A stretch of DNA of 29,639 nucleotides from a virus. A model generated the notes under the pieces. It made no database searches. It was not told where the DNA came from and worked only from the letters and a program-made list of their open reading frames with translations. Numbering within the stretch: position 1 is the first letter of the stretch; each line of letters starts with the position of its first letter. Position numbers and translations under genes: made by a program. Below are positions 7,160-29,365 of this stretch, piece after piece. The DNA lies in the IMG/VR virus record IMGVR_UViG_3300030508_000019, one strand, 5' to 3'.

Positions 7160-10100
7160 TTATGGTGTTATATCTACTGGTAAATTACTCGTTGTAGTTT
7201 GCGCTGGACCCAAAGTTTGAGCTATAGTACTAGTTGAAGCTGTAACCTTAGTTGTAGTAAGTCCCCCAGCATTTGCGGATCCCCCTGGTAAGGTCAGTGT
7301 AGCAAATGACTGCTGTGCATTAGCCGCACTGTTTTGAGCAATTAATAATTGTTCTTGCACCGCTGGGATTGGAGCTACAGTCCCAGATACTAATACGCTA
7401 ACTAGCTGCTGTTCGGCCAATCCAGCGTTTTTAGCGCTAACTAAACTAGCGGCCAAGGCGTTTTCTGGTTGAGCTGCATTTAACAAATTACTATTAGAAC
7501 CTGGTTGACTGTAATCTAATACTATTACAGTAACATCTGGTTGTATGGTATTTGTCGAATTTCCCCCGGTATTCGGTGAATTTGGAGCTGATGCTGAAGC
7601 TGGTGAAACCGATGTAGGTGTAGTATTTGTACTTTGTTGGGTAGCCATGGCCGTGGATAACATAGTCGATGGGTCACTTGTAGCCGTTGGAGTACCTAAA
7701 CCAGCAAACAAAAAAGCCTCCGTACTTTGAAAAGTTGTCTCATCTTGTAAATCTTGCCCATTTAACCCGTTAGTCTGAGGAATATTAATCCACCCCTGTT
7801 CGGTTATTTCACTGATGATTGTGTTGAGATCTTTCCATCTCCCCCATGGAAATGGGGATATTAATTCATATCCTTTATCATCTGTGTAAGGAATAACAGA
7901 ATTTGGATTACCACAAATATCCTTTACATAATCTCCATCCGCTGGTCGGCCTGGATAATTTGGGTCTTTTGCTCTTCCATTAAAATACCCCGTATCATTT
8001 ACGATAACATAAGTAGATGTAGGAGTACTGGCTTTATTACCTACGGTTGTTGCTAAGGTAGTGGATAGATAAGAATACACTTTTATTTGTTGATCTGTTG
8101 GACCAAATTTTGTTCCGTCAATGTTTTTCGTAACAGCGGGTAAAGATTGAGATACATTTAGCTCACTTGTCATATTAGTGTTTGTATTTTGATTACCCCC
8201 AGCGGTTTGTTGAATATATTGATTGTAACTTTGGGGTTGCGCGGGATCAAACACCGTAGCTGCGACTGGATTATTTGTCCACATATAAATTAAATTAGGG
8301 GCTGTGGTATAAGCGGAAAATTTTGTGGCCGGTGAATTACTAACATTGCCCGTAGTAGATGTTTGAGCTGTCTTAACCAAAACTCTAGGTCGGACTGTAT
8401 CACATACTATGGACATTGTAGCTGACCCCCCAACCTGATAATTTATAGCTACAGATTTTATGTATGCGTACATATCTTTGTGGGGTATAAATACGGGGAA
8501 TCCCAATTTCAATTCAGGGCGCATGGGAATAGTAAACGAGTAAGTACGGTACCCTCTATTTGTCCTAGCTGTTTCTGCGGCAGCGTGAGCGAATAGAGTA
8601 TATTTGTCTCCCATTGTAAGCCAGGGTACTTGCTGCATGGGTTCTTCCCTAAGACCAAACTTTGCTAGTTTTGTGACATCAATATACTCCGCTACTGGCT
8701 TTGCGGGTGCCGGAAAATTGTTCCCCTGCCACGGCATAATATTTCCTGTTATAGTGGTGCGCGTGCGTCGAATGGCGCTTTGATCTTCTGTTTCCTGTTC
8801 TGTTAACATTTCTGATAAATAAACCACAAAAGGGTTATTTTGCGGGTAAATTTGAGTCAGAGGATTCGTCATACTATTGCTAGTAGATGGTGGATTAATG
8901 CTACTAGCAGACACTGAATTACTAGAGGTAGTTGTTGTTGGCGTCGAGCCTCCACTAAGTGCAGTAGATATAGATGATTGAACTAAACTGTCAAAATTTT
9001 GAGGGCTGGAACTAGTTTGTTTAGACCGAGTACCTAAGTTTGTGACATCCAGATTGTACAAAGGTGGTTTGATAATAATCTTACCATCAATATCTTGATA
9101 TGCTTCAAAATCCATCTTCTTAACTACTTCACGAATAAGATCCAATCTATTAACAATAACACTCTCAGTAAGCTGTAAACTAGCGGGAGTTCTAAAAGGT
9201 AAAAATTGTTGTATTTTTTTATAATAAGGGGAGTTATCAGTAATCGTTTCAGTAAAAGTTTTTACGGGATGAGATGTAACACTAGCATACTTCTTATCTT
9301 TGTCCATCTTCCCTTTATTTTCATCTTCTTGTAATTGATCTAATTGCCCTAAAGTATCTTTGTCTGGCCCATAAATATGTACATCTTTAATCATATTCAT
9401 CAAAATGGCTTGCCATTTCGCCATGTAACCTCTAGTAACAGCGGAATAAAACATATCACTTGGAGTTAAATAACCTCCATCTGTGCTCCTAACTGAACTA
9501 GCTTGAAATCCATCCGATTGAAAACCTGTTGTGAAAGCTTTTGCTAAGATAGTAAAACAATTATTATCTCCAAAAATACTTTGCTGCCAGGTTAACATAC
9601 TCCCTAAAGTTGCCGCTGCCATTGCAGATGGGTGAACATTAATTTGCATCTTTTCAAGTAAGTGCATTGACCCTTGACATTGAATTGATATCTCCAGAGT
9701 TTTTCCATTATCGTTATAACTTATGTGAGATGTAATTCCCTTGAAAACCCGGCGATATACTGTATCTCCGTTTGATGCTAAGTAATATCCTTTAGCATAT
9801 ACTTGTACCTGCATCATAGTTTCTAAAAGATTGTTACCACCAGGCATTTTATACAAGTACCTTAAAAAATTTGGAACCTGCAAACCGATAGTGGCGTTGG
9901 GTACCATTATATCTGTATCATAAGAAGCGTTGAATGCTGTGACATGGTCATTAAAATTCACTAAAGTACTACTAGCTTTGGTTTTTGGATCGTCGATAAA
10001 GTAATTTGTCAAATAGGGGGTTCCCTCTAAATACACAATAACATCGGGAGCGGTCTTGATTATTTCTCTTTCTTGACAACTTTGGGACAAATTTCTAATA

Positions 10101-10264: not shown

Positions 10265-11431
10265 TTAAGAAACTCCGTTATAAAAATTAGACGCTGCCAC
10301 ACTAGTGGGGTTTAAAAGAAAAGATGTATTTGCCATATTATCTACGGATGTAGGAGCTACTTGTGGCAGGGTATTGTTAACATTAGCAGCCGCAACAGAT
10401 GGGGAGACTAAAGCTGGTTGACTATTCAATGTACTAAACCCAACACTAGAAATATTGGTTCCTGGTATATTTGATGGAGGTAAATTAGCCAACGATGATA
10501 CTGTAGTTGTACCATTTTGTGAAGTGGTAGCAGCCGAAGCCCATGCTCCATAAGTATGCCCTCGTTGTACATTATTGAGAATCAAATTTTGATACGGGGA
10601 TGTGGAGCGAAATCTCTCTTTCCATGCGATAAAACTGATTTGAAAATTCATCAGCCAAGGTGCTTCCGCCGATTGACTAATAGTAAGGGAATCAAACATA
10701 CCGTACCAAATAAAATTTCCTACCCACAATTCGACATCTTGGTGCATTTTGATTCTACGTCTGGTGAAATCCGCTGCGAGTGGGCCTTCAGCTGCTTGCT
10801 CTCCTTCAAACCAGTATCCGTTATTTTCAAACACCATGACCAAAGACTCTAAATTCCGATAGGAATCTGAAAATGGTTGAAACTGATCTGTAACTCCAAA
10901 GGCAAAATATTGGCCAGCGGTTTTACCGCTGAGATTTACTTGGAAAGAATCTTCTCCCCACACACCTATCTGCCAGCCAGCACGAGTCATAGCTTGCCCA
11001 TCTAAAGTTTGTCGATTGACTTGAACCTGAGACGGGTTAATGAGAAATCGAAAAATAGCTGCTGGTGCATTACCATTTTGTTGTCCGGTGGATGTAACTC
11101 CGCGATGTGGTATACGAACGAGTACATAATCCACGAAGGGTTTCATCGCCCCCGCTGTAAAAAAATCGCTATATTGCACAAGACTTGTTCGACCGGTGGC
11201 AGCGTAACCCTTATCTTGAGGGGATTTTTGTCCCCGTGCTGTATATGCTTTTTCAATCTGACTACTGGTATCGCTGGGGCTAATAGGACAGGGAATGATG
11301 CGTTTCTCTCCGCGAATAGGCAGTTGAACAGGGGATGTTTGCGCCGAATTTCCCGCAGTTATATTGAAATCACTAAAATCGGTACTTACATTTGATCCAA
11401 TATTGGAGTTGTTTGTATTTGTGCTCGCCAT
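10265..11431 (-). CDS. Virion structural protein (388 aa). Its core domain is paralogous to the central domain of the 484-aa lysin-domain protein
   Basis: TAATG start/stop overlap with the upstream gene. Shared motifs with ORF 11431..12885 are TRAGWQIGVWGE..SGKTAGQYFAFGVTDQF versus SRTGMHITLWGM..SGTTGVFMNQYGITDWF, and APWLMNFQISFIAWK versus SPFQWKFSFTFQV. Confidence 0.5.
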   Translation of the reverse strand: MASTNTNNSNIGSNVSTDFSDFNITAGNSAQTSPVQLPIRGEKRIIPCPISPSDTSSQIEKAYTARGQKSPQDKGYAATGRTSLVQYSDFFTAGAMKPFVDYVLVRIPHRGVTSTGQQNGNAPAAIFRFLINPSQVQVNRQTLDGQAMTRAGWQIGVWGEDSFQVNLSGKTAGQYFAFGVTDQFQPFSDSYRNLESLVMVFENNGYWFEGEQAAEGPLAADFTRRRIKMHQDVELWVGNFIWYGMFDSLTISQSAEAPWLMNFQISFIAWKERFRSTSPYQNLILNNVQRGHTYGAWASAATTSQNGTTTVSSLANLPPSNIPGTNISSVGFSTLNSQPALVSPSVAAANVNNTLPQVAPTSVDNMANTSFLLNPTSVAASNFYNGVS

Positions 11432-12885
11432 TAAATATCTCCCACGGGTCCTGAAGTTGTAGTTTGTACTGGACCTAAAGTTTGAGCTATGGTATTAGTT
11501 GCAGATGTAACCATAGTTGTGGTAAGACCTCCTACACTTGCGGATCCCCCACGTTCTGTCAATGTAACAATCGGCTGCGTTGTAGCTTGAGCCAGTAAAT
11601 TAATCTTAGGGAGGGGTTGAGTGACTTGAAAATTGGGATAATACAATGATGTATAGGTATTCTCAACTTGAAATGTAAAAGAAAATTTCCATTGAAACGG
11701 GCTGTCCGCATCTTGGGTCCAATTCAAAGACTTGAAATACCCCAAATAAACATTGTTTCTATACTTCATCCCCACATACCCGCGTGTCATAACATCATTG
11801 TTACGCCCATGTTGTTGAAATGAACTGGCTCCTACTTTGGTAGACCAACCATTCGGGGCTTGTTGTTCTTGTTCGCCCATAGTTCCGTTATAACTATCCG
11901 TGTGATACCACACATTACCGTTCATTTGGAATAACTTCAAAAATTCTACAAAACAATCCTGTGCCGCTACTCGATAGGCTTCTGGGTTTTGGTTAATAGC
12001 CCTTTCTGTATCGGGATTGTTACTAAAACCAGCTCCTACCAATTTAGCTATCTCATCATTAATTTGAGCGGTGCTGAACCAATCTGTAATACCGTATTGA
12101 TTCATAAACACTCCCGTAGTGCCGCTACCATTGATGAGATCCGGTTGCATACCCCAGAGGGTGATATGCATACCTGTACGCGATGGGGTGCGATTGTAAA
12201 CATGCTTACTTGCTATTTCAAATGTAGTCATTGATGTGTTGAGTTCAATGACGATAGGTTGCTGATTAGTGGGGTTATTCAGCGTTTGTGTGGGGTCATT
12301 ACGATCCAGGTATACTACAAAACTCACTGGTTGTACCATACCACGCGCATGAGGATTTCCAGTGACTAAATTTCTATCCAAATACCATGGCGTGGCGCTT
12401 AGACTTGGCTCCGGAACCTGTAAAGGCGGTGTAAGATCAGCCGCTGATAATCCGTAATTAGTACCGGTTGTGTTAGGCCCAATAATATTTCCTACTTGAG
12501 GCGCTACTGGAGTATTTAGTACATTAAACCGGGAAATTCCTAAAGTACTAGCAACTTGAGTTGCTGTATTTGGGTCTAGATGGTCCAAAAAAGCACCGCT
12601 TCCAAAGGTAGTCCAAGCACGGTAACCTTGGGCTTGGAAAATAGCGAAGGCTGCGTCAGCATTAGCTTGAGGATCTGTTATTACATTTTGGTCATACTGT
12701 GGCCAATAATGCCCATCTATTTGCCAAAGGCCTACTGACCCCCCAGGGTCGTCTGGATTATATTTATTGGGATTCCCACTACTCTCCGCTAAAGCAATAG
12801 CGGCCATGATGGGTATTTGATCTCCTGTAAAACCTGCATTAGCTGCAAAACCCTCTAATTGGTTGAAATTATATATTGTTGGCAT
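11431..12885 (-). CDS. Tail-associated peptidoglycan hydrolase (484 aa). N-terminal lytic-transglycosylase (lysozyme-like) domain, central structural domain, and the shared C-terminal module
   Basis: The N-terminus IALAESSGNPNKYNPDDPGGSVGLWQIDGHYW matches the catalytic Glu-Ser ... G-L-(M/W)-Q signature of family-1 lytic transglycosylases (SLT domain), as found in virion-associated lysins. It lies immediately downstream of the tape-measure-like gene. Confidence 0.7.
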   Translation of the reverse strand: MPTIYNFNQLEGFAANAGFTGDQIPIMAAIALAESSGNPNKYNPDDPGGSVGLWQIDGHYWPQYDQNVITDPQANADAAFAIFQAQGYRAWTTFGSGAFLDHLDPNTATQVASTLGISRFNVLNTPVAPQVGNIIGPNTTGTNYGLSAADLTPPLQVPEPSLSATPWYLDRNLVTGNPHARGMVQPVSFVVYLDRNDPTQTLNNPTNQQPIVIELNTSMTTFEIASKHVYNRTPSRTGMHITLWGMQPDLINGSGTTGVFMNQYGITDWFSTAQINDEIAKLVGAGFSNNPDTERAINQNPEAYRVAAQDCFVEFLKLFQMNGNVWYHTDSYNGTMGEQEQQAPNGWSTKVGASSFQQHGRNNDVMTRGYVGMKYRNNVYLGYFKSLNWTQDADSPFQWKFSFTFQVENTYTSLYYPNFQVTQPLPKINLLAQATTQPIVTLTERGGSASVGGLTTTMVTSATNTIAQTLGPVQTTTSGPVGDI

Positions 12886-12927
12886 ATTGATTATTGATTA
12901 TTGATTATTGATTATTGATTATTGATT
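12886..12927. repeat. Perfect heptanucleotide tandem repeat (ATTGATT)x6 (AATCAAT on the coding strand). It spans the TMP stop codon and ends 1 nt from the lysin start codon
   Basis: Six exact 7-bp units are read directly from the sequence. They resemble STRR-type heptamer arrays of heterocystous cyanobacteria. Confidence 0.9.
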
Positions 12928-15900
12928 CCTATTTGGAAGTCCCCCATTCAACCAAGGAGCGATTGCCGGGTGCATCTGTTTACCTGCTTGTTCATTAGAC
13001 ACGCTTGCGCTGTCATTATACCCAGCATCTTGGTTAATTTGAGCACTATAAAAATTATATACAGTATGGGACACCGGTGGACCCGACGGAGACCCCCCAG
13101 CCCCTTGTGGGATCTTGTGTCCCATAAACCAAACGCCGGTATTTAAATCTGGATCCAAATCATCATTGGATTGGTTGCCCGATAATTTATCTAATATTTC
13201 CTGCATTTGGACATCGTTTTTAAACATTCCTAGGCCTTCATATTTTTTTAAGTATTCCACCAAAGCTGTATCTTTATCGATGGTGGTTTCCAAAAGCTTT
13301 TCTCTGTTTTTAACGGCATCAGTTTGATTTTCCGAATTTAATCGCTTTAGTGTTGCCGCTGCTTCAGCCGACTCTTTCCGGGCTGCATCCATAGTTTCAG
13401 GTATTTTGGCGTCTTCAAAAGCTTTTGTAAGCCTATCTGAATCAGTTGGGCCTCCAAAGATCCAACTATTAGCCATATGTTCTACGAAAAATATCAACTT
13501 ATTAAGTAATGGGGCGATTAACTGTTCAAGAACATCAGAAGGAGATATTTCTCGTTTTTGAATACTTGCTTCGTCTTCTATAGACTTTGCTAAATCTGGA
13601 TCTTTTATATCCATGGGCTTTAGGTTTTTTAATACCATTGCTTGGGTGCTTGGTAATTCTTCTACCAAAAGCTGTAGTTCACTAAGTAATTTTTTTGGGT
13701 TTGTTTGCTGAGAATCTAAAGCATCATATAAATCATCTGTTGATTTTGTTCCGTTTTCTACCTCTGATATTAATTCTTTACTAGCTCCTTTAGTCCCCAA
13801 ATCTACAAGAAAAGGTCCTCTAGTTTTATTAGCTTGCCACAGTTCCCTAAATAAAGCTTTTCGAGCATCTTTTTGAGCTGCTACATCTTCTTTCCCTGCT
13901 CCAGGTAACCCTCCTGGCATTTCGTCAATATCTTTTATACGACCTGTCGCCATATCTTGAGAATTTTGTTGGATGAAAGCTACAGCATCTCCCTTTACGC
14001 CTATTGCATCAAGAATCTGCGTCAAAGCCATAGCTGCGCTAGGATTTATTGAACCGGTTAATATACTACTTAAGTCAGTACCAGAATACTTTAAGGCGCT
14101 TAGGACATTGTCTTGGGCGGTAGCTGCTGTTTGATATTGACTTCGTTGAAAAAGAGTAGCGCTAGCCGCACGACCTTCCATTGTACTCCCAGGTGCGTAT
14201 GCTGCGCTTTGTCGAAGAGATAAAGTAAGATTGTTTAAAGCATCCTCAAGATTCTTTCTAGTTCTTTCATCTTGAACATTTGATACGGCTACTCTTTGAG
14301 CTTCAATAAGACTTACAGCTTTTGTTGTATCCCCTTTGGCTATTAAGTCTTGTATAGTAGATTTATCTATTTTATCTGCTCCTACCGACTGTCCGTTAGC
14401 ATCTACTAACTTTCCACTATCTACTTCGTCATTATACATATCAACATAGGTTCCAGCTTCCTGTTGAAACCGTTTATTCCCTTGAATAATTTGTGCTGGG
14501 TTTTTTAAAGCTTCCTGCCACATAGTTTGAGCTAAATTTCCAGAATTTCTTTTGTCACCGCCTTGAGATAAAAATTCCATCATATCTTTTAAAGATTCTG
14601 AACTAATAGCTCCATAGCGACTAAGATTACGCATCATTTCTGTAGTAAACTCTAAAGAACGATTCATACGATCAAAATGCATACTTACTTCATCAATGAT
14701 TTTTAAATATTTGGTAGTACTTATACCTGCCGCTTGTGTATCTTTATTTAGTTGAGTAAAAAACTTTTCAGAACTACGCATAGTCTGCCCATATTGATCT
14801 AACAACTTAAGTAATTCCGTTACTCCTTCTGTATCGGTCAAGCCCGCAACTCTAGCTGCCCCAAAAACTACTCTCTGTGCTTCCCCCAGGCTACCACGCA
14901 TATACCCTCTATTTCCTCCCGGTCCTTGATTGGCTGTATCAGGGGCGTTATCTACCAAGGAACCCCCTATGTTAGTTCCACCCGCCGCTAAACCTCCAGC
15001 TAAATCTAAATTCCTTTCAAAAGTTATTCCCAGCCCCAAGCCCTGCCCCATGAGCCTTGGTGTTAAAGCATTTCTAGCTGTTTCAAAAGCTGTACCAGCT
15101 AACTCCCCTGCTCTAGCGCCAGAGAATAAACCAGCTTTTCCTAACTTCCCCTCCATTTCTTTATTTTGCTTTATGTAAGTTCCCATTAAAGCACTGAGTC
15201 CTACAATAACGCCAGCGAGAACTTCAAGAGGTATCATGATTTCCGGAGCAATTCCTGTAAGTGCTGTTATCGCCCCCTCAATACCTTCGGAAAGAGTGCT
15301 CATGGCCCCTACTACACCGGAACCTCCTTCCATTGCGGCGGTATATCCGATCCCTGTTGCACCTTCAGATTCGAATCCTTCAGCCATTGTTCCGGCTTTG
15401 AAATCAGCCGCTTTTTTACCTTTAAACCCCATTTTCTTCATTAAAAATTGCATACCTCTTTCGGTGGGTTTACCTTTTTCATCAAACTGACGAGGTTCTC
15501 CCGCTTCCTGCATTTTTTTCATTTCTTTAAAAGCGGCGTCTCGTTTATTTGTCATATGCTCGCGTGTCGCAGCAAGACGATGTTTTTTAGTTTCTTCAGT
15601 TTTATCCTTCAATTCTTGAATTTGTTCTAACCTACGGTCTATTTTATAATTAATCCCTTTCCCGATACCGACGGTTCCCAACATACCCATGATGCCTTTA
15701 AAATGCGCCAATGAAGGACGAAGTTGACTAAGTGCTTTAGCTAATGCTAAAACATTTTTTGTAGAATCGCTGACAATCTCACCAACCTTAGCTAGCTCTT
15801 CTTCATTTAGTTTAATCGCCTTACCTATTTCGCTATATACTTTTTTAACTTTATCCAATTCTTTGTTGAGCAACTCAGTCTCAGTTCTATTTGCTTTAGA

Positions 15901-23667: not shown

Positions 23668-25584
23668 ATGGTAAGTAAATTTGAGTTATCGCCGTATTCT
23701 ACATTCATTCATAAATCCCGTTACGCCCGCTGGTTAGAAGAAAAAACTCGAAGAGAAAATTGGGATGAAACCGTAAATCGATATATTACTTATTTCGCTC
23801 ATCGTATTCCGAAATCCGATCGTGAAGCAACATCCGCTGAAATTGAGAAAGCTATTTTTCATATGGATGTCATGCCATCAATGCGAGCGATGATGACCGC
23901 AGGTCCCGCTCTGGACAAAGACAATGCTGCGGGTTTCAATTGTAGCTATTTAGCTGTAGATGATCCTCGTGCTTTTGATGAAGCAATGTACCTCAGTATG
24001 TGCGGTACAGGTGTAGGATTTTCTGTTGAACGTCAGTATGTAAATCAACTTCCTATTATTGCTGAAAATTTCTATCCAGTAGATACCTGTATTAAAGTGC
24101 GTGATTCTAAAATTGGCTGGTCGAATGCGTTCCGACAATTGCTTAGTCTACTTTATTCAGGCTCTATTCCCACATGGGATATGAGTGCTGTTCGCCCAGC
24201 AGGATCACTTTTAAAAACCATGGGGGGTAGGTCCAGTGGTCCCGAACCCTTAGATCGTCTTTTCAAATTCTCCGTTAATCTCTTCCAAAAAGCCGCGGGG
24301 CGTAAACTAAATTCTATTGAATGTCACGATTTGATGTGTATGGTCGCAGATATTGTAGTTGTTGGAGGGGTGCGACGTAGCGCTATGTTGTCTCTTTCCA
24401 ATCTCTCAGATGAGCGTATGCGTAACGCCAAAAACGGTCAATGGTGGGATGAGAAAAACCCTCAAGGGGCTCCCTGGCGTAGACTAGCAAACAATTCTGT
24501 AGCATACACAGAAAAACCAGAACCAGAAATTTTTATTCGAGAGTTTCTTACTTTGATAGAATCAAAATCTGGAGAGCGGGGAATTTTTAATCGAGTATCC
24601 GCCGTCAATAGCGCAAAGAAAACAGGTCGCCGGAAATGGGAAGGTATAAATTTTGGCTCAAATCCCTGTGGTGAAATAAATTTACGCCCTAACCAATTTT
24701 GTAACCTATCCGAAGTAGTTATAAGACCTCACGATACTAAAGCTACCATTAAACGTAAAGTTCGCATCGCTGTAATCATCGGCTGCTTACAATCTACTTT
24801 AACTGATTTCCGATATCTTCGCAAAGAGTGGCAAAAAAATACTGAAGAAGAGCGTTTATTAGGGGTGAGTCTCACAGGAATTATGGACAATGTGATGATG
24901 TCCACTAATGGCGCGGATCTAGCAAAACTATTAGATGAACTTCGTGAATACACAATCGAGGTCGCTACAGAGTGGGCTGGGAAGCTGGGTATAAACGTCC
25001 CTACGGCGATTACTTGCATCAAACCATCTGGAACAGTCTCCCAACTCGTAAACTGCTCCCCAGGCATCCATAGCCGTTACTCGCGTTGGATTAAACGAGG
25101 TACGCAAGAAGATGCTAAGAGTCCAGTAAACACTTTTTTGAAATCTATAGGTTGGTTGTATGAACCTGAATTGAACAAACCACAAGACTCTGATCTTTTC
25201 TTTTTCGCCTTAGAATCCCCAGATATTAGTATATGTAGGAATGATCGTAATGCTATCGAACAATTAGAAATTTACAAAACTTACAAACTTCATTGGACTG
25301 AACATAATCCTAGCTGCACTGTGTATGTAAGAGAATCTGAATGGACGGATGTATTGGCGTGGATTTACAAACATTTCGATATTATTGGTGGGGTTAGTTT
25401 TTTACCCTACGATAACGGAATTTACCGTCAGGCCCCATTCACTGAAATTACCGAAGCTGAGTATGTGAAATTGAAAGAAAAAGAACCGGTAATCGACTGG
25501 TCGAAATTACCAGATTTTGAAAAAGAAGACATGACTACAGCTTCCCATGAAATGGCCTGCTCCGCTGGCGGATGCGAAGCCTAG
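23668..25584 (+). CDS. Ribonucleotide reductase, single-chain, probably class II adenosylcobalamin-dependent (NrdJ-like), 638 aa
   Basis: Active-site finger-loop motif FGSNPCGEINL (class II NPCGEI; class I would be NxCxE with Leu). C-terminal Cys pair (CSAGGCEA). No NrdB-like small-subunit gene nearby. Confidence 0.7.
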   Translation: MVSKFELSPYSTFIHKSRYARWLEEKTRRENWDETVNRYITYFAHRIPKSDREATSAEIEKAIFHMDVMPSMRAMMTAGPALDKDNAAGFNCSYLAVDDPRAFDEAMYLSMCGTGVGFSVERQYVNQLPIIAENFYPVDTCIKVRDSKIGWSNAFRQLLSLLYSGSIPTWDMSAVRPAGSLLKTMGGRSSGPEPLDRLFKFSVNLFQKAAGRKLNSIECHDLMCMVADIVVVGGVRRSAMLSLSNLSDERMRNAKNGQWWDEKNPQGAPWRRLANNSVAYTEKPEPEIFIREFLTLIESKSGERGIFNRVSAVNSAKKTGRRKWEGINFGSNPCGEINLRPNQFCNLSEVVIRPHDTKATIKRKVRIAVIIGCLQSTLTDFRYLRKEWQKNTEEERLLGVSLTGIMDNVMMSTNGADLAKLLDELREYTIEVATEWAGKLGINVPTAITCIKPSGTVSQLVNCSPGIHSRYSRWIKRGTQEDAKSPVNTFLKSIGWLYEPELNKPQDSDLFFFALESPDISICRNDRNAIEQLEIYKTYKLHWTEHNPSCTVYVRESEWTDVLAWIYKHFDIIGGVSFLPYDNGIYRQAPFTEITEAEYVKLKEKEPVIDWSKLPDFEKEDMTTASHEMACSAGGCEA

Positions 25585-26657: not shown

Positions 26658-27152
26658 ATGAACGTAATTGAGTACTGCACAGAGGAAGTGCGTAGACAAG
26701 GGCATGATATTACTCTGCTTGACGGCATTCAGAGAGTTGGTTGGATGTTAGACGGTTGGACTTACGCTCTTGTTAACGTTTCCGATCGCATGCCTGATCT
26801 AGGTGATGCAATCAGTTTGGGTATGCTTGTGGAAGTTAAGAAGAATGTTAACGGACTGCGTAACTGTGACATCCGAGTAGGTGATTGTATATGCCCAAGA
26901 CCAGATGAACTTCGTCGGCTGCTTAACAGGCTGTTCGATCTCCGTGATAGTATGACACCAATCGAGTTTTACAAAGAGTTTGAGATGATTCATCCGTTTG
27001 TTGACGGTAATGGGCGAACGGGTAAGATTCTGTTCAACTGGTTAAATAGGACGTTATTTGATCCAATCTTTCCGCCGAACGACTTGTTTGGTTATGTTGT
27101 AGCTAAACTGCCAGACGGACAGCGCGTTGCTGCCGAATTACCGACCGCATAA
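26658..27152 (+). CDS. Fic/Doc-family (Fido) domain protein (164 aa)
   Basis: IHPFVDGNGRTGKILFNWL matches the Fic active-site motif HPFx(D/E)GNGRxxR, with the last Arg replaced by Lys. A strong SD (GGAGTGAGGA) precedes the ATG. Confidence 0.7.
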   Translation: MNVIEYCTEEVRRQGHDITLLDGIQRVGWMLDGWTYALVNVSDRMPDLGDAISLGMLVEVKKNVNGLRNCDIRVGDCICPRPDELRRLLNRLFDLRDSMTPIEFYKEFEMIHPFVDGNGRTGKILFNWLNRTLFDPIFPPNDLFGYVVAKLPDGQRVAAELPTA

Positions 27153-27930: not shown

Positions 27931-28590
27931 ATGGCAGTAGCGGGAGCAGCAAAGGCGAAGAAGGTGTGTGAGGTGTTTGACACACCATATATCATTACCC
28001 TAGTTCAACAAGCAAAAGCTGGAGATGAAGCGGCTTTTTCAACTCTATATCACAAATTTTATCGGTATTTGAGTAATACTATAAGGCGCGTTCTTCCCGG
28101 GCAACAACCGGATACAGCGGACTGGCTCGCCAACAAAGCCATGACCCAAGCCTGGTTAAATCTCAAAAATTTCAATGAGAAATCCACATTTCAAACCTGG
28201 ATTACACGCATTGCCATCAACGAATGGAAGATGTATATTCGTGAAGAAACATCCGTAGGTCGTCAACGAGACAAAGAACTTTCTCTAAATGAAATTTTGG
28301 ATGAAAATCCTAGCGACGGTAAATTTGGACAACGGGACATTAATTTAGCTGGTATCGCTGATCGACAAATGCTTGATTTGTCGCTTAAAGGTATCCCTAG
28401 TGTTTACCGTGATATTGTGTATTTAAAATTGTGGATGGGATTTTCCGTGAAGGAAATTGAAAATATCTTGGGAGTGAAAAGACCCAAAAAAGTCGGAATG
28501 AATATCGTTAAGGGTCGTAAGATGTTGCTGGAACAGGTAAAAAAGAATTCTACAAATAGTCCTAGACAAACAAGGATGACCGGGGTATAA
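27931..28590 (+). CDS. ECF-type (group IV) sigma-70 family RNA polymerase sigma factor (219 aa)
   Basis: Region 2: AKAGDEAAFSTLYHKFYRYLSNTIRRVL and TFQTWITRIAINEW. Region 4 helix-turn-helix: YRDIVYLKLWMGFSVKEIENILGVKRPKKVGMNIVKGRKML. Confidence 0.85.
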   Translation: MAVAGAAKAKKVCEVFDTPYIITLVQQAKAGDEAAFSTLYHKFYRYLSNTIRRVLPGQQPDTADWLANKAMTQAWLNLKNFNEKSTFQTWITRIAINEWKMYIREETSVGRQRDKELSLNEILDENPSDGKFGQRDINLAGIADRQMLDLSLKGIPSVYRDIVYLKLWMGFSVKEIENILGVKRPKKVGMNIVKGRKMLLEQVKKNSTNSPRQTRMTGV

Positions 28591-28717: not shown

Positions 28718-29365
28718 ATGAGAATAAGTAAGGTAACAATTTTTGCGTTAATTTTGAGTTTGCTTTCGTTTGTTTCTGCGGCCTCTGCCGATCCCATCAC
28801 TCTGACGAATCTATTCGGCACCATAAGTATTAGCGATATCGGCGTAGGTGGAATGGGCACGATTGGTTCAACTACCATTACATCTCACGGTTCGGAGCTA
28901 ACAAACTTTGAAGGAATAACCGCTCCGCATGGGCATTCGCTTGGTTATGTAGGGTTTTCTACCGGCGTGCTAGAAAGCGGAAGTGTGCTAAACGGTGGGG
29001 TATTTTCCAGTACCGGGTCCACTTTCGATGTTATCGGTAAGGGTAAATTTGGACAACCTAAGGGAAATATTTTTATCGGCAGCTTTGTAGGTCCTATTGA
29101 CTGGACATTAATCTCCCAAAATAAGCAGGAGCGAACCTACACTTTAACAGGTGAGTTGTCTGGAACACTCTGGAATGGGCGTTTTACAACTGGGTACACT
29201 ACCCAAACCATCAATATACTCAACAAGAATCAACTGAACGGCGGTGTGGGGCACATTGGGCTTGGTTCTACGAGTATTTCCGCCCCTGAACCAGGGACTT
29301 TAGGTCTGTTGGGAACAGGACTCGTAGGGATCGCTGGAATGTTTCGCCGGAAGTATTTTTCTTAA
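28718..29365 (+). CDS. Secreted PEP-CTERM domain protein (215 aa), an exosortase substrate
   Basis: N-terminal signal peptide (MRISKVTIFALILSLLSFVSAASA). The C-terminus has a PEP motif plus a TM helix plus a basic tail (SAPEPGTLGLLGTGLVGIAGMFRRKYFS), the PEP-CTERM signature. Confidence 0.8.
   Translation: MRISKVTIFALILSLLSFVSAASADPITLTNLFGTISISDIGVGGMGTIGSTTITSHGSELTNFEGITAPHGHSLGYVGFSTGVLESGSVLNGGVFSSTGSTFDVIGKGKFGQPKGNIFIGSFVGPIDWTLISQNKQERTYTLTGELSGTLWNGRFTTGYTTQTINILNKNQLNGGVGHIGLGSTSISAPEPGTLGLLGTGLVGIAGMFRRKYFS

Follow-up and report, generated by a model that had tools for sequence, protein, structure and literature searches.

On comparison of the sequences, the baseplate hub protein of one lineage of soil phages, and of that lineage only, has acquired a copy of the C-terminal tail of a second inner-baseplate protein, in place of the short tail that is native to hubs. 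The two genes lie close together in the stretch of phage DNA that was analysed (29,639 bp, 41% G+C; hereafter the window) and encode a hub of 1034 aa and a protein of 484 aa with an N-terminal lytic transglycosylase domain and a tube fold. The explanation that best accounts for the findings as a whole, with a probability of about 0.6, is that the tail of the 484-aa protein was copied onto the hub in the lineage of the window and acts as a tethered docking tail, which would now be presented by the hub as well as by the initiator-like protein. The features concerned are collected in Table 1.

Table 1 Genes and module copies discussed in the text, with positions in the window
Feature	Position	Strand	Remarks
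Tape-measure-like gene, 1118 aa	12919..16275	minus	Directly upstream of the 484-aa gene; synteny with Tunturi_5 gp257
Inner-baseplate protein gene, 484 aa	11431..12885	minus	N-terminal SLT domain, tube-fold domain and 76-aa C-terminal tail; module donor lineage
Native module copy	11434..11593	minus	...LLAQATTQPIVTLTERGGSASVGGLTTTMVTSATNTIAQTLGPVQTTTSGPVGDI; DNA repeat 11456-11593
388-aa gene between the two copies	10265..11431	minus	Probable second tube-fold (tube-initiator-like) inner-baseplate protein
Hub gene, 1034 aa	7160..10264	minus	gp27 / Mu gp44 / P2 gpD fold with a large C-terminal extension; module recipient
Hub module copy	7163..7325	minus	Last ~54 codons, ...AANAQQSFATLTLPGGSANAGGLTTTKVTASTSTIAQTLGPAQTTTSNLPVDITP; DNA repeat proper 7191-7325

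A repeat search over the whole window returned one direct repeat, 7191-7313 against 11456-11578 (123 nt, 80% identical ungapped), and this pair is the sole long internal repeat of the window. Its core, 7191-7300 against 11456-11565, had been put at about 83% identity in a preliminary description of this DNA; the measured value was 82% (90/110, ungapped). When three small indels are admitted the DNA similarity spans 7191-7325 and 11456-11593, with 109 of 138 positions identical (79%). The local alignment score of the two copies was 76, far above the 9.6 ± 1.5 (maximum 18) obtained with approximately 1500 random 231-nt windows of the same sequence, so the 110-bp repeat that had been described is real. 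Both copies are on the minus strand, each at the 3′ end of its open reading frame, and they make up roughly the last 50 codons of the 1034-aa and 484-aa reading frames. The encoded peptides are 66.7% similar over 48 aa by tblastn, and their homology reaches both stop codons, S[N/G][L/-]PV[-/G]DI. A third copy of the module was not found in the window by tblastn. Outside the tails no BLASTP match between the two proteins was better than E = 4.7, in agreement with the earlier statement that they are otherwise dissimilar, and the C-terminal peptides quoted for them were also correct.

Both tails recur without a single base change in 10 independent contigs, which come from different samples of ENA and JGI, so the arrangement is not an artefact of assembly. 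The longest contigs of this species measure 152,942 and 176,231 bp. Of the 29 codons that specify identical residues in the two copies, 20 are also identical as codons, where codon usage would predict 9.1 (P = 3.5e-5). This excess goes beyond what the protein sequence would require and therefore indicates that the similarity is due to common descent of the DNA.

The SLT domain of the 484-aa protein was recognised by Pfam (SLT_3, 69.1 bits with a cut-off of 27; SLT, 26.2 bits with a cut-off of 21.3) and also matches Slt70, MltE and EtgA in the PDB, which bears out the lysin domain ascribed to it earlier. The catalytic Glu is in an E-S motif, ...IALAESSGNP.... Residues ~150-412 form a tube-fold domain of the tube-initiator or ripcord-like kind, with the tail-tube (Hcp/gp19-like) fold. 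No LysM domain was detected in the protein by Pfam, nor does it have a LysM/ripcord extension, and nothing similar to its C-terminal tail was detected among known proteins. It was therefore assigned to the same fold class as the ripcord proteins, as something that works like them, and not as a ripcord orthologue. Residues 429-484 are predicted by AlphaFold to be disordered (pLDDT <50), and the very end of the tail is degenerated (...TTTSGPVGDI).

The 1034-aa protein has a hub fold with tandem tube-like domains, and its gene is found downstream of the tape-measure and tube-initiator genes in a contractile-tail module. Its residues 976-1034 are likewise predicted to be disordered (pLDDT ~30). 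The hub copy of the module, which ends ...TTTSNLPVDITP, retains the ancestral terminal motif TTS.LP..IT. The 388-aa protein encoded between the two copies gave a weak Pfam match to Phage_tail_tube_init, and an hhalign comparison found a tube-fold C-terminal strand motif common to this protein and the 484 family; P0228 is a natural fusion of a 484-like and a 388-like protein. The 388-aa protein has a tail of its own, of about 100 aa and rich in S, T and N, which is unrelated to the module.

The 1118-aa tape-measure-like gene places the locus at the junction of tail tube and baseplate. The order tape measure, 484, 388, hub corresponds to gp257 (annotated as 'tail length tape measure protein'), gp256, gp255 and gp254 of Tunturiibacter phage Tunturi_5, a 309-kb myovirus that infects Acidobacteriota (PMC11924767), the 388-aa gene being syntenic with gp255. 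The same order is found in the related loci L003, L006, L010 and L012-L021. The window is part of a large soil phage related to this contractile-tailed jumbo phage. Many homologues lie on what look like huge-phage genomes, contigs of some 260-465 kb, and the family therefore belongs to huge soil phages. PHROGs gave no useful match for the hub, the 484-aa or the 388-aa protein, and the analysis provides annotations for three gene families that had no name before, those of the hub, of the SLT-tube-fold protein and of the second tube-fold protein.

The direction of the copying was deduced from homologues of the two proteins. In distant relatives (Tunturi_5, L002 and L003) the 484 homologue stops after the last tube-fold strand, at ...FQVE.T....P, and these tail-less proteins had suggested that the hub was the donor. 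This was overturned by the closer homologues, 118 of which have a hypervariable tail of 10-76 residues after that strand. The nearest, P0122 (69% identity), has a colinear tail of 76 aa, LLAQAVTPQQITVTSLGGFAVAGGVTSTKV...QTSTSTLPDQIT. Many members of the 484 family have, after a hypervariable low-complexity linker, the end motif [TS][TS]S.LP[DN]Q[IV]T at the extreme C-terminus, and in the tree built from the core domain it turns up in at least 5 separate clades. The colinear tail of P0122 and the presence of the end motif in several clades imply that the tail is native to the 484 family. Alternative tails (...PPPPPPTG and ...GNGQVxA) are found beside the LPDQ type, and the types are patchily spread over the core-domain tree, a pattern that fits the module exchange envisaged in the preliminary description.

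The other hub homologues have a conserved ...AVQE.LLA.Q... followed by short, different tails, and the end motif of the module was present in 0 of 119 of them. The tails were also compared in 38 genomes, in which a hub and a 484 homologue were paired by the identical length of their contigs: the similarity score was 152 for the window pair, and the mean was 20.4 for cognate and 20.8 for non-cognate pairs. Four more pairs (Tunturi_5, L003, L006 and L010), inspected directly at one locus, had no shared tail. Since none of those 119 hubs has the motif and cognate pairs score no higher than non-cognate ones, the hub gained a 484-type tail once, in the lineage of the window. These results do not support the earlier suggestion of a conserved tag shared by the two proteins; among related phages it is the 484-family protein alone that has the motif, the outcome which the preliminary description had named as arguing against such a tag, and tail sharing is at the level of the background. 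A more general strand motif, 'hTL.P', was considered for the hub and 484 tails and rejected, as real comparisons scored 22.56 and composition-shuffled ones 22.55; no resemblance between hub and 484 tails across the families was found beyond that due to composition.

In the gapped DNA alignment residual similarity runs up to the codons for ...LL(I)AQ. This element is conserved in the hub family and is also present in the 484 tail of the window clade, and it is therefore a plausible recombination junction. The copy was probably joined at the short patch of similarity around these codons. A 37-position profile of the module, which being of low complexity has low power, matched only the window's own 484 cluster among 1.84 billion representatives, and the sharing is confined to one near-clonal species, which gives minimal comparative backing to a function of the hub copy. 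In the nearest other lineage (L004, that of P0122) the hub gene is known only to about 60 codons before its end; a metagenome scan for an overlapping contig gave more distant relatives only, and the species is absent from IMG/VR. As the end of this hub is missing, the transfer can only be bracketed in age and in phyletic extent.

Divergence of the two copies, calculated by the NG86 method, gave dN 0.11-0.27, dS 0.36-0.56 and dN/dS 0.3-0.5. With dS at ~0.4-0.6 the duplication is not very recent. The 'near-identity' of the preliminary description was thus an overstatement for copies that differ at about 20% of their bases, and of the recent duplication or gene conversion that it proposed, duplication stands; a very recent date and ongoing conversion do not, given this dS and the lack of shared tails in relatives. 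The DNA of the window's 484 tail is 79% identical to the hub copy and 61% identical to the P0122 tail, so either the copying postdates the split from P0122 or conversion took place after the split. At positions that distinguish the two copies and can be aligned with P0122, it is the hub copy that agrees with P0122, in having the ancestral states A and K within GGxAxAGGxTxTKV as well as the terminal LP..IT. Of the two, the donor copy has therefore diverged further since the duplication, notably in the otherwise conserved end motif. Variation within the species amounts to 0-16 SNPs in 5.7 kb, none of them in the modules, which is too low to inform on conversion or selection.

What the tail might do was considered by analogy with solved baseplates, from which a common docking tail is the best functional guess and a plausible one. 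In its layout, a long low-complexity linker with a conserved peptide at its end, the tail has the form of a tethered docking motif. It would then consist of a flexible tether with a short docking peptide at its tip, and would reach outward from the central complex of hub and initiator to a partner in the six-fold periphery of the baseplate, for which the sheath initiator or a wedge/triplex protein is a candidate. The trimeric hub could supply the same contact as the initiator-like protein, or supply it instead. Its tail may be redundant with that of the 484-aa protein or may be the main carrier of the docking peptide, and the latter would explain the decay of the end motif in the donor.

The main rival to a docking tail is that illegitimate recombination replaced a short, dispensable tail of the hub with a copy of the neighbour's, which, being disordered, has been tolerated as a passenger with no function, and that the two copies are still alike only because limited time has passed. 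The tails of both families are hypervariable in length and composition and of low complexity, and many relatives are almost tail-less, so a given tail may be dispensable. The predicted disorder of both tails and the restriction of the sharing to a single lineage are likewise consistent with a passenger, as is the marginal evidence for purifying selection: the excess of synonymous over non-synonymous differences had P = 0.02 for the 38-codon core and P = 0.06 for 47 codons, in a test that covered these 38-47 codons only. However, dN/dS is not close to 1, which is mildly against the absence of function, and the frame has stayed open to an unchanged stop position despite the ~20% nucleotide divergence and at least 3 indels. 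The recurrent end motif is also better preserved in the hub copy than in the donor, contrary to what would be expected of a functionless sequence. A neutral passenger is accordingly considered possible but rather unlikely; if it were the correct reading, the module would be a case of ordinary mosaicism at gene ends.

It is very improbable that the module is an old common functional tag whose two copies have been homogenised by recurrent gene conversion between the ends of the genes. The synonymous sites are indeed more alike than codon usage predicts, as described above, and the copies are direct repeats only 4.3 kb apart. Against this, no common tail was seen in the 38 paired relatives or in the four pairs inspected directly, the copies have diverged at about 20% of sites with the dS given above, and they have no exact run long enough for homologous recombination to be efficient; one duplication accounts for the data.

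Some tail proteins of other phages, such as lambda gpH and T5 pb2, are processed at the C-terminus. The suggestion that the module is a propeptide or processing tag that is cleaved off both proteins as the phage tail matures is nevertheless scarcely credible here. Neither a protease gene nor a conserved context for a cleavage site was identified, conservation is strongest at the very C-terminus and not at a junction, and tail-less relatives show that the core can fold and function with no such segment.

The idea that the repeat is a nucleic-acid element (the TR/VR pair of a diversity-generating retroelement (DGR), an RNA structure or a terminator) can practically be dismissed: the likeness to a TR/VR pair is one of superficial anatomy, an imperfect repeat of ~120-125 bp with one copy at the 3′ end of a tail gene, whereas each copy is protein-coding and stays in frame up to its stop codon, the mismatches are of all types and not adenine-specific, no reverse transcriptase was found by Pfam among the 18 largest ORFs, and the folding z-scores of the copies were +0.4 and +0.8, with no Rfam match.

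If the copied tail is a docking peptide, the window represents a natural experiment in which contacts between a three-fold centre and a six-fold periphery could be moved between subunits by copying a disordered tail of ~50 residues. It would also offer a concrete motif to be sought in cryo-EM maps of jumbo and huge soil phages, the baseplates of which are uncharacterised. A more specific version of the docking tail, which is speculative and judged improbable, takes TTS.LPDQIT itself as the docking peptide and proposes that the trimeric hub has taken over contact with the six-fold partner from the initiator-like protein, or shares it with that protein, in which case three hub tails and three initiator tails would serve the six wedges. 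Were this handover true, the window would hold an evolutionary snapshot of hub and tube-initiator contacts becoming interchangeable, comparable with P2, and the peptide would be a previously undescribed class of short linear motif in the inner baseplates of huge soil phages.

The shuffling of modules between phage tail genes is well known. Anchor modules common to different tailspikes or fibres of one virion are an established form of tail mosaicism, for example in the tailspike proteins (TSPs) of CBA120 and in gp63.1 and gp66 of G7C. The module described here resembles these in being a short element, gained by recombination, on two otherwise unrelated structural proteins of one virion. Known mosaic modules are mostly folded N-terminal anchors on receptor-binding proteins, whereas that of the window is C-terminal, predicted to be disordered and part of the inner baseplate. 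The unusual features here are the disordered C-terminal module and its carriers, a hub and a muralytic tube-initiator-like protein.

Compared with the hub family (T4 gp27, Mu gp44, P2 gpD and the pyocin R2 hub), the hub of the window is about three times as long and has a conserved C-terminal extension of ~350 aa, to which the borrowed tail is added in the window lineage. The 484-aa protein is comparable to the ripcord and tube-initiator proteins (pyocin R2 PA0626, Pa193 gp38/gp39, Bas63 gp018, and the LysM-tube proteins of phiCD508 and eCIS) but has an N-terminal SLT domain and not LysM. Its tail, a disordered stretch of ~76 aa rich in T, S, G and Q with an LPDQIT-type end, has no detectable sequence relation to the ripcord segments.

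In pyocin R2 the ripcord segment of the initiator stabilises the pre-contraction baseplate. In Pa193 the hub bears a 3+3 ring of ripcord-1 and ripcord-2, and gp37 and gp38 have outward C-termini to which the sheath initiator gp35 binds (PMC11042391). The C-terminal helix of P2 gpU and a loop of the gpD hub contact alternate triplexes in a similar manner (bioRxiv 10.64898/2026.09.14.750843). The outward C-termini of tube-initiator or ripcord proteins reach a peripheral partner in Pa193, pyocin R2 and P2, which serve as the model for the tail of the window proteins. The likeness to P2 is that hub and tube initiator would both contact the six-fold periphery, as they do there in resolving the mismatch between three-fold and six-fold symmetry (bioRxiv 10.64898/2026.09.14.750843). 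The P2 elements, a loop and a helix, are non-homologous and were seen in density, whereas the tails of the window proteins are identical by descent and their contact is hypothetical. For interchangeable contact elements on a hub and an initiator-like protein, P2 gpD and gpU nevertheless offer the closest precedent.

The C-terminal tails in the family (P0122-P0240) of the 484-aa protein (SLT lytic transglycosylase domain, tube-fold domain and a tail predicted to be disordered) sort into a few recurring end types: ...TTS.LPDQ(I/V)T, ...(Q)PPPPPPTG(Q/G/SEG), ...GNGQV(T/L)A or ...SLSEGPQ(V/E)A, and ...TSxIEGxIE. When the types were placed on a tree of the core domains of the family they were found to be scattered patchily, which suggests that tails have been exchanged repeatedly, or else that the short motifs are convergent.

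The 388-aa protein, a probable second tube-fold protein of the inner baseplate, ends in a low-complexity tail that bears no relation to the C-terminal module shared by the 484-aa protein and the 1034-aa hub. As a rule, inner-baseplate proteins of this phage group seem to carry long, disordered tails at the C-terminus. The metagenomic protein P0228 (807 aa) is a natural fusion, in which a 484-like part (SLT and tube-fold domains) and a 388-like part are joined in a single polypeptide, implying that the two separate proteins sit directly next to each other in the baseplate.

The start codon (ATG) of the 484-aa gene is immediately preceded by a tandem repeat of a heptamer, (CAATAAT)n. Contigs of this phage species that are nearly identical elsewhere differ in the number of copies (about 3, 4, 6 or 7), and it is at the repeat that many of the species' contigs break. 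The length of the product of the preceding tape-measure-like (TMP-like) gene is also variable among the contigs of this species (1110, 1112 or 1118 aa). The repeat may be a VNTR acting on translation of the 484-aa gene or on the C-terminus of the TMP-like protein.

Features of the window outside the shared module (coordinates in nt)
Feature	Window	Strand	Remarks
Distal tail protein, 1118 aa	1330-4686	-	CBM5/12; weak tail-fibre PHROG matches
S/T/N/A-rich low-complexity tail, ~100 residues	10265-11431 (whole gene)	-	residues ~285-388 of 388-aa protein
(CAATAAT)n	12886-12933	-	between TMP-like stop and 484-aa gene start
Ribonucleotide reductase large subunit	23668-25584	+	adjoins tail module
Fic/DOC-family protein	26658-27152	+	adjoins tail module
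Sigma-70 region-2 protein	27931-28590	+	adjoins tail module
215-aa protein	28718-29365	+	C-terminal PEP-CTERM sorting motif (PF07589)

The carbohydrate-binding module of the distal tail protein spans residues 404-442 (Pfam, E = 6.7e-8), and the protein is a probable receptor-binding fibre for a chitin- or cellulose-like glycan. The PEP-CTERM motif of the phage-encoded 215-aa protein (Pfam, E = 4.7e-6) suggests that the host has an exosortase system, through which this protein would be routed.

Contigs of 436-465 kb (e.g. Ga0326728_10000058, 436,173 bp), and a single contig of 894,233 bp, carry homologues of both the hub and the 484-aa protein. This suggests that there is a huge-phage clade with kinship to Tunturi_5, a 309-kb Tunturiibacter myovirus. 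The size of the 894-kb contig is out of the ordinary for a phage, and this assembly may be chimeric or host-associated. The window also resembles Tunturi_5 in its layout: in both phages the tail genes are followed by replication and nucleotide genes on the opposite strand.
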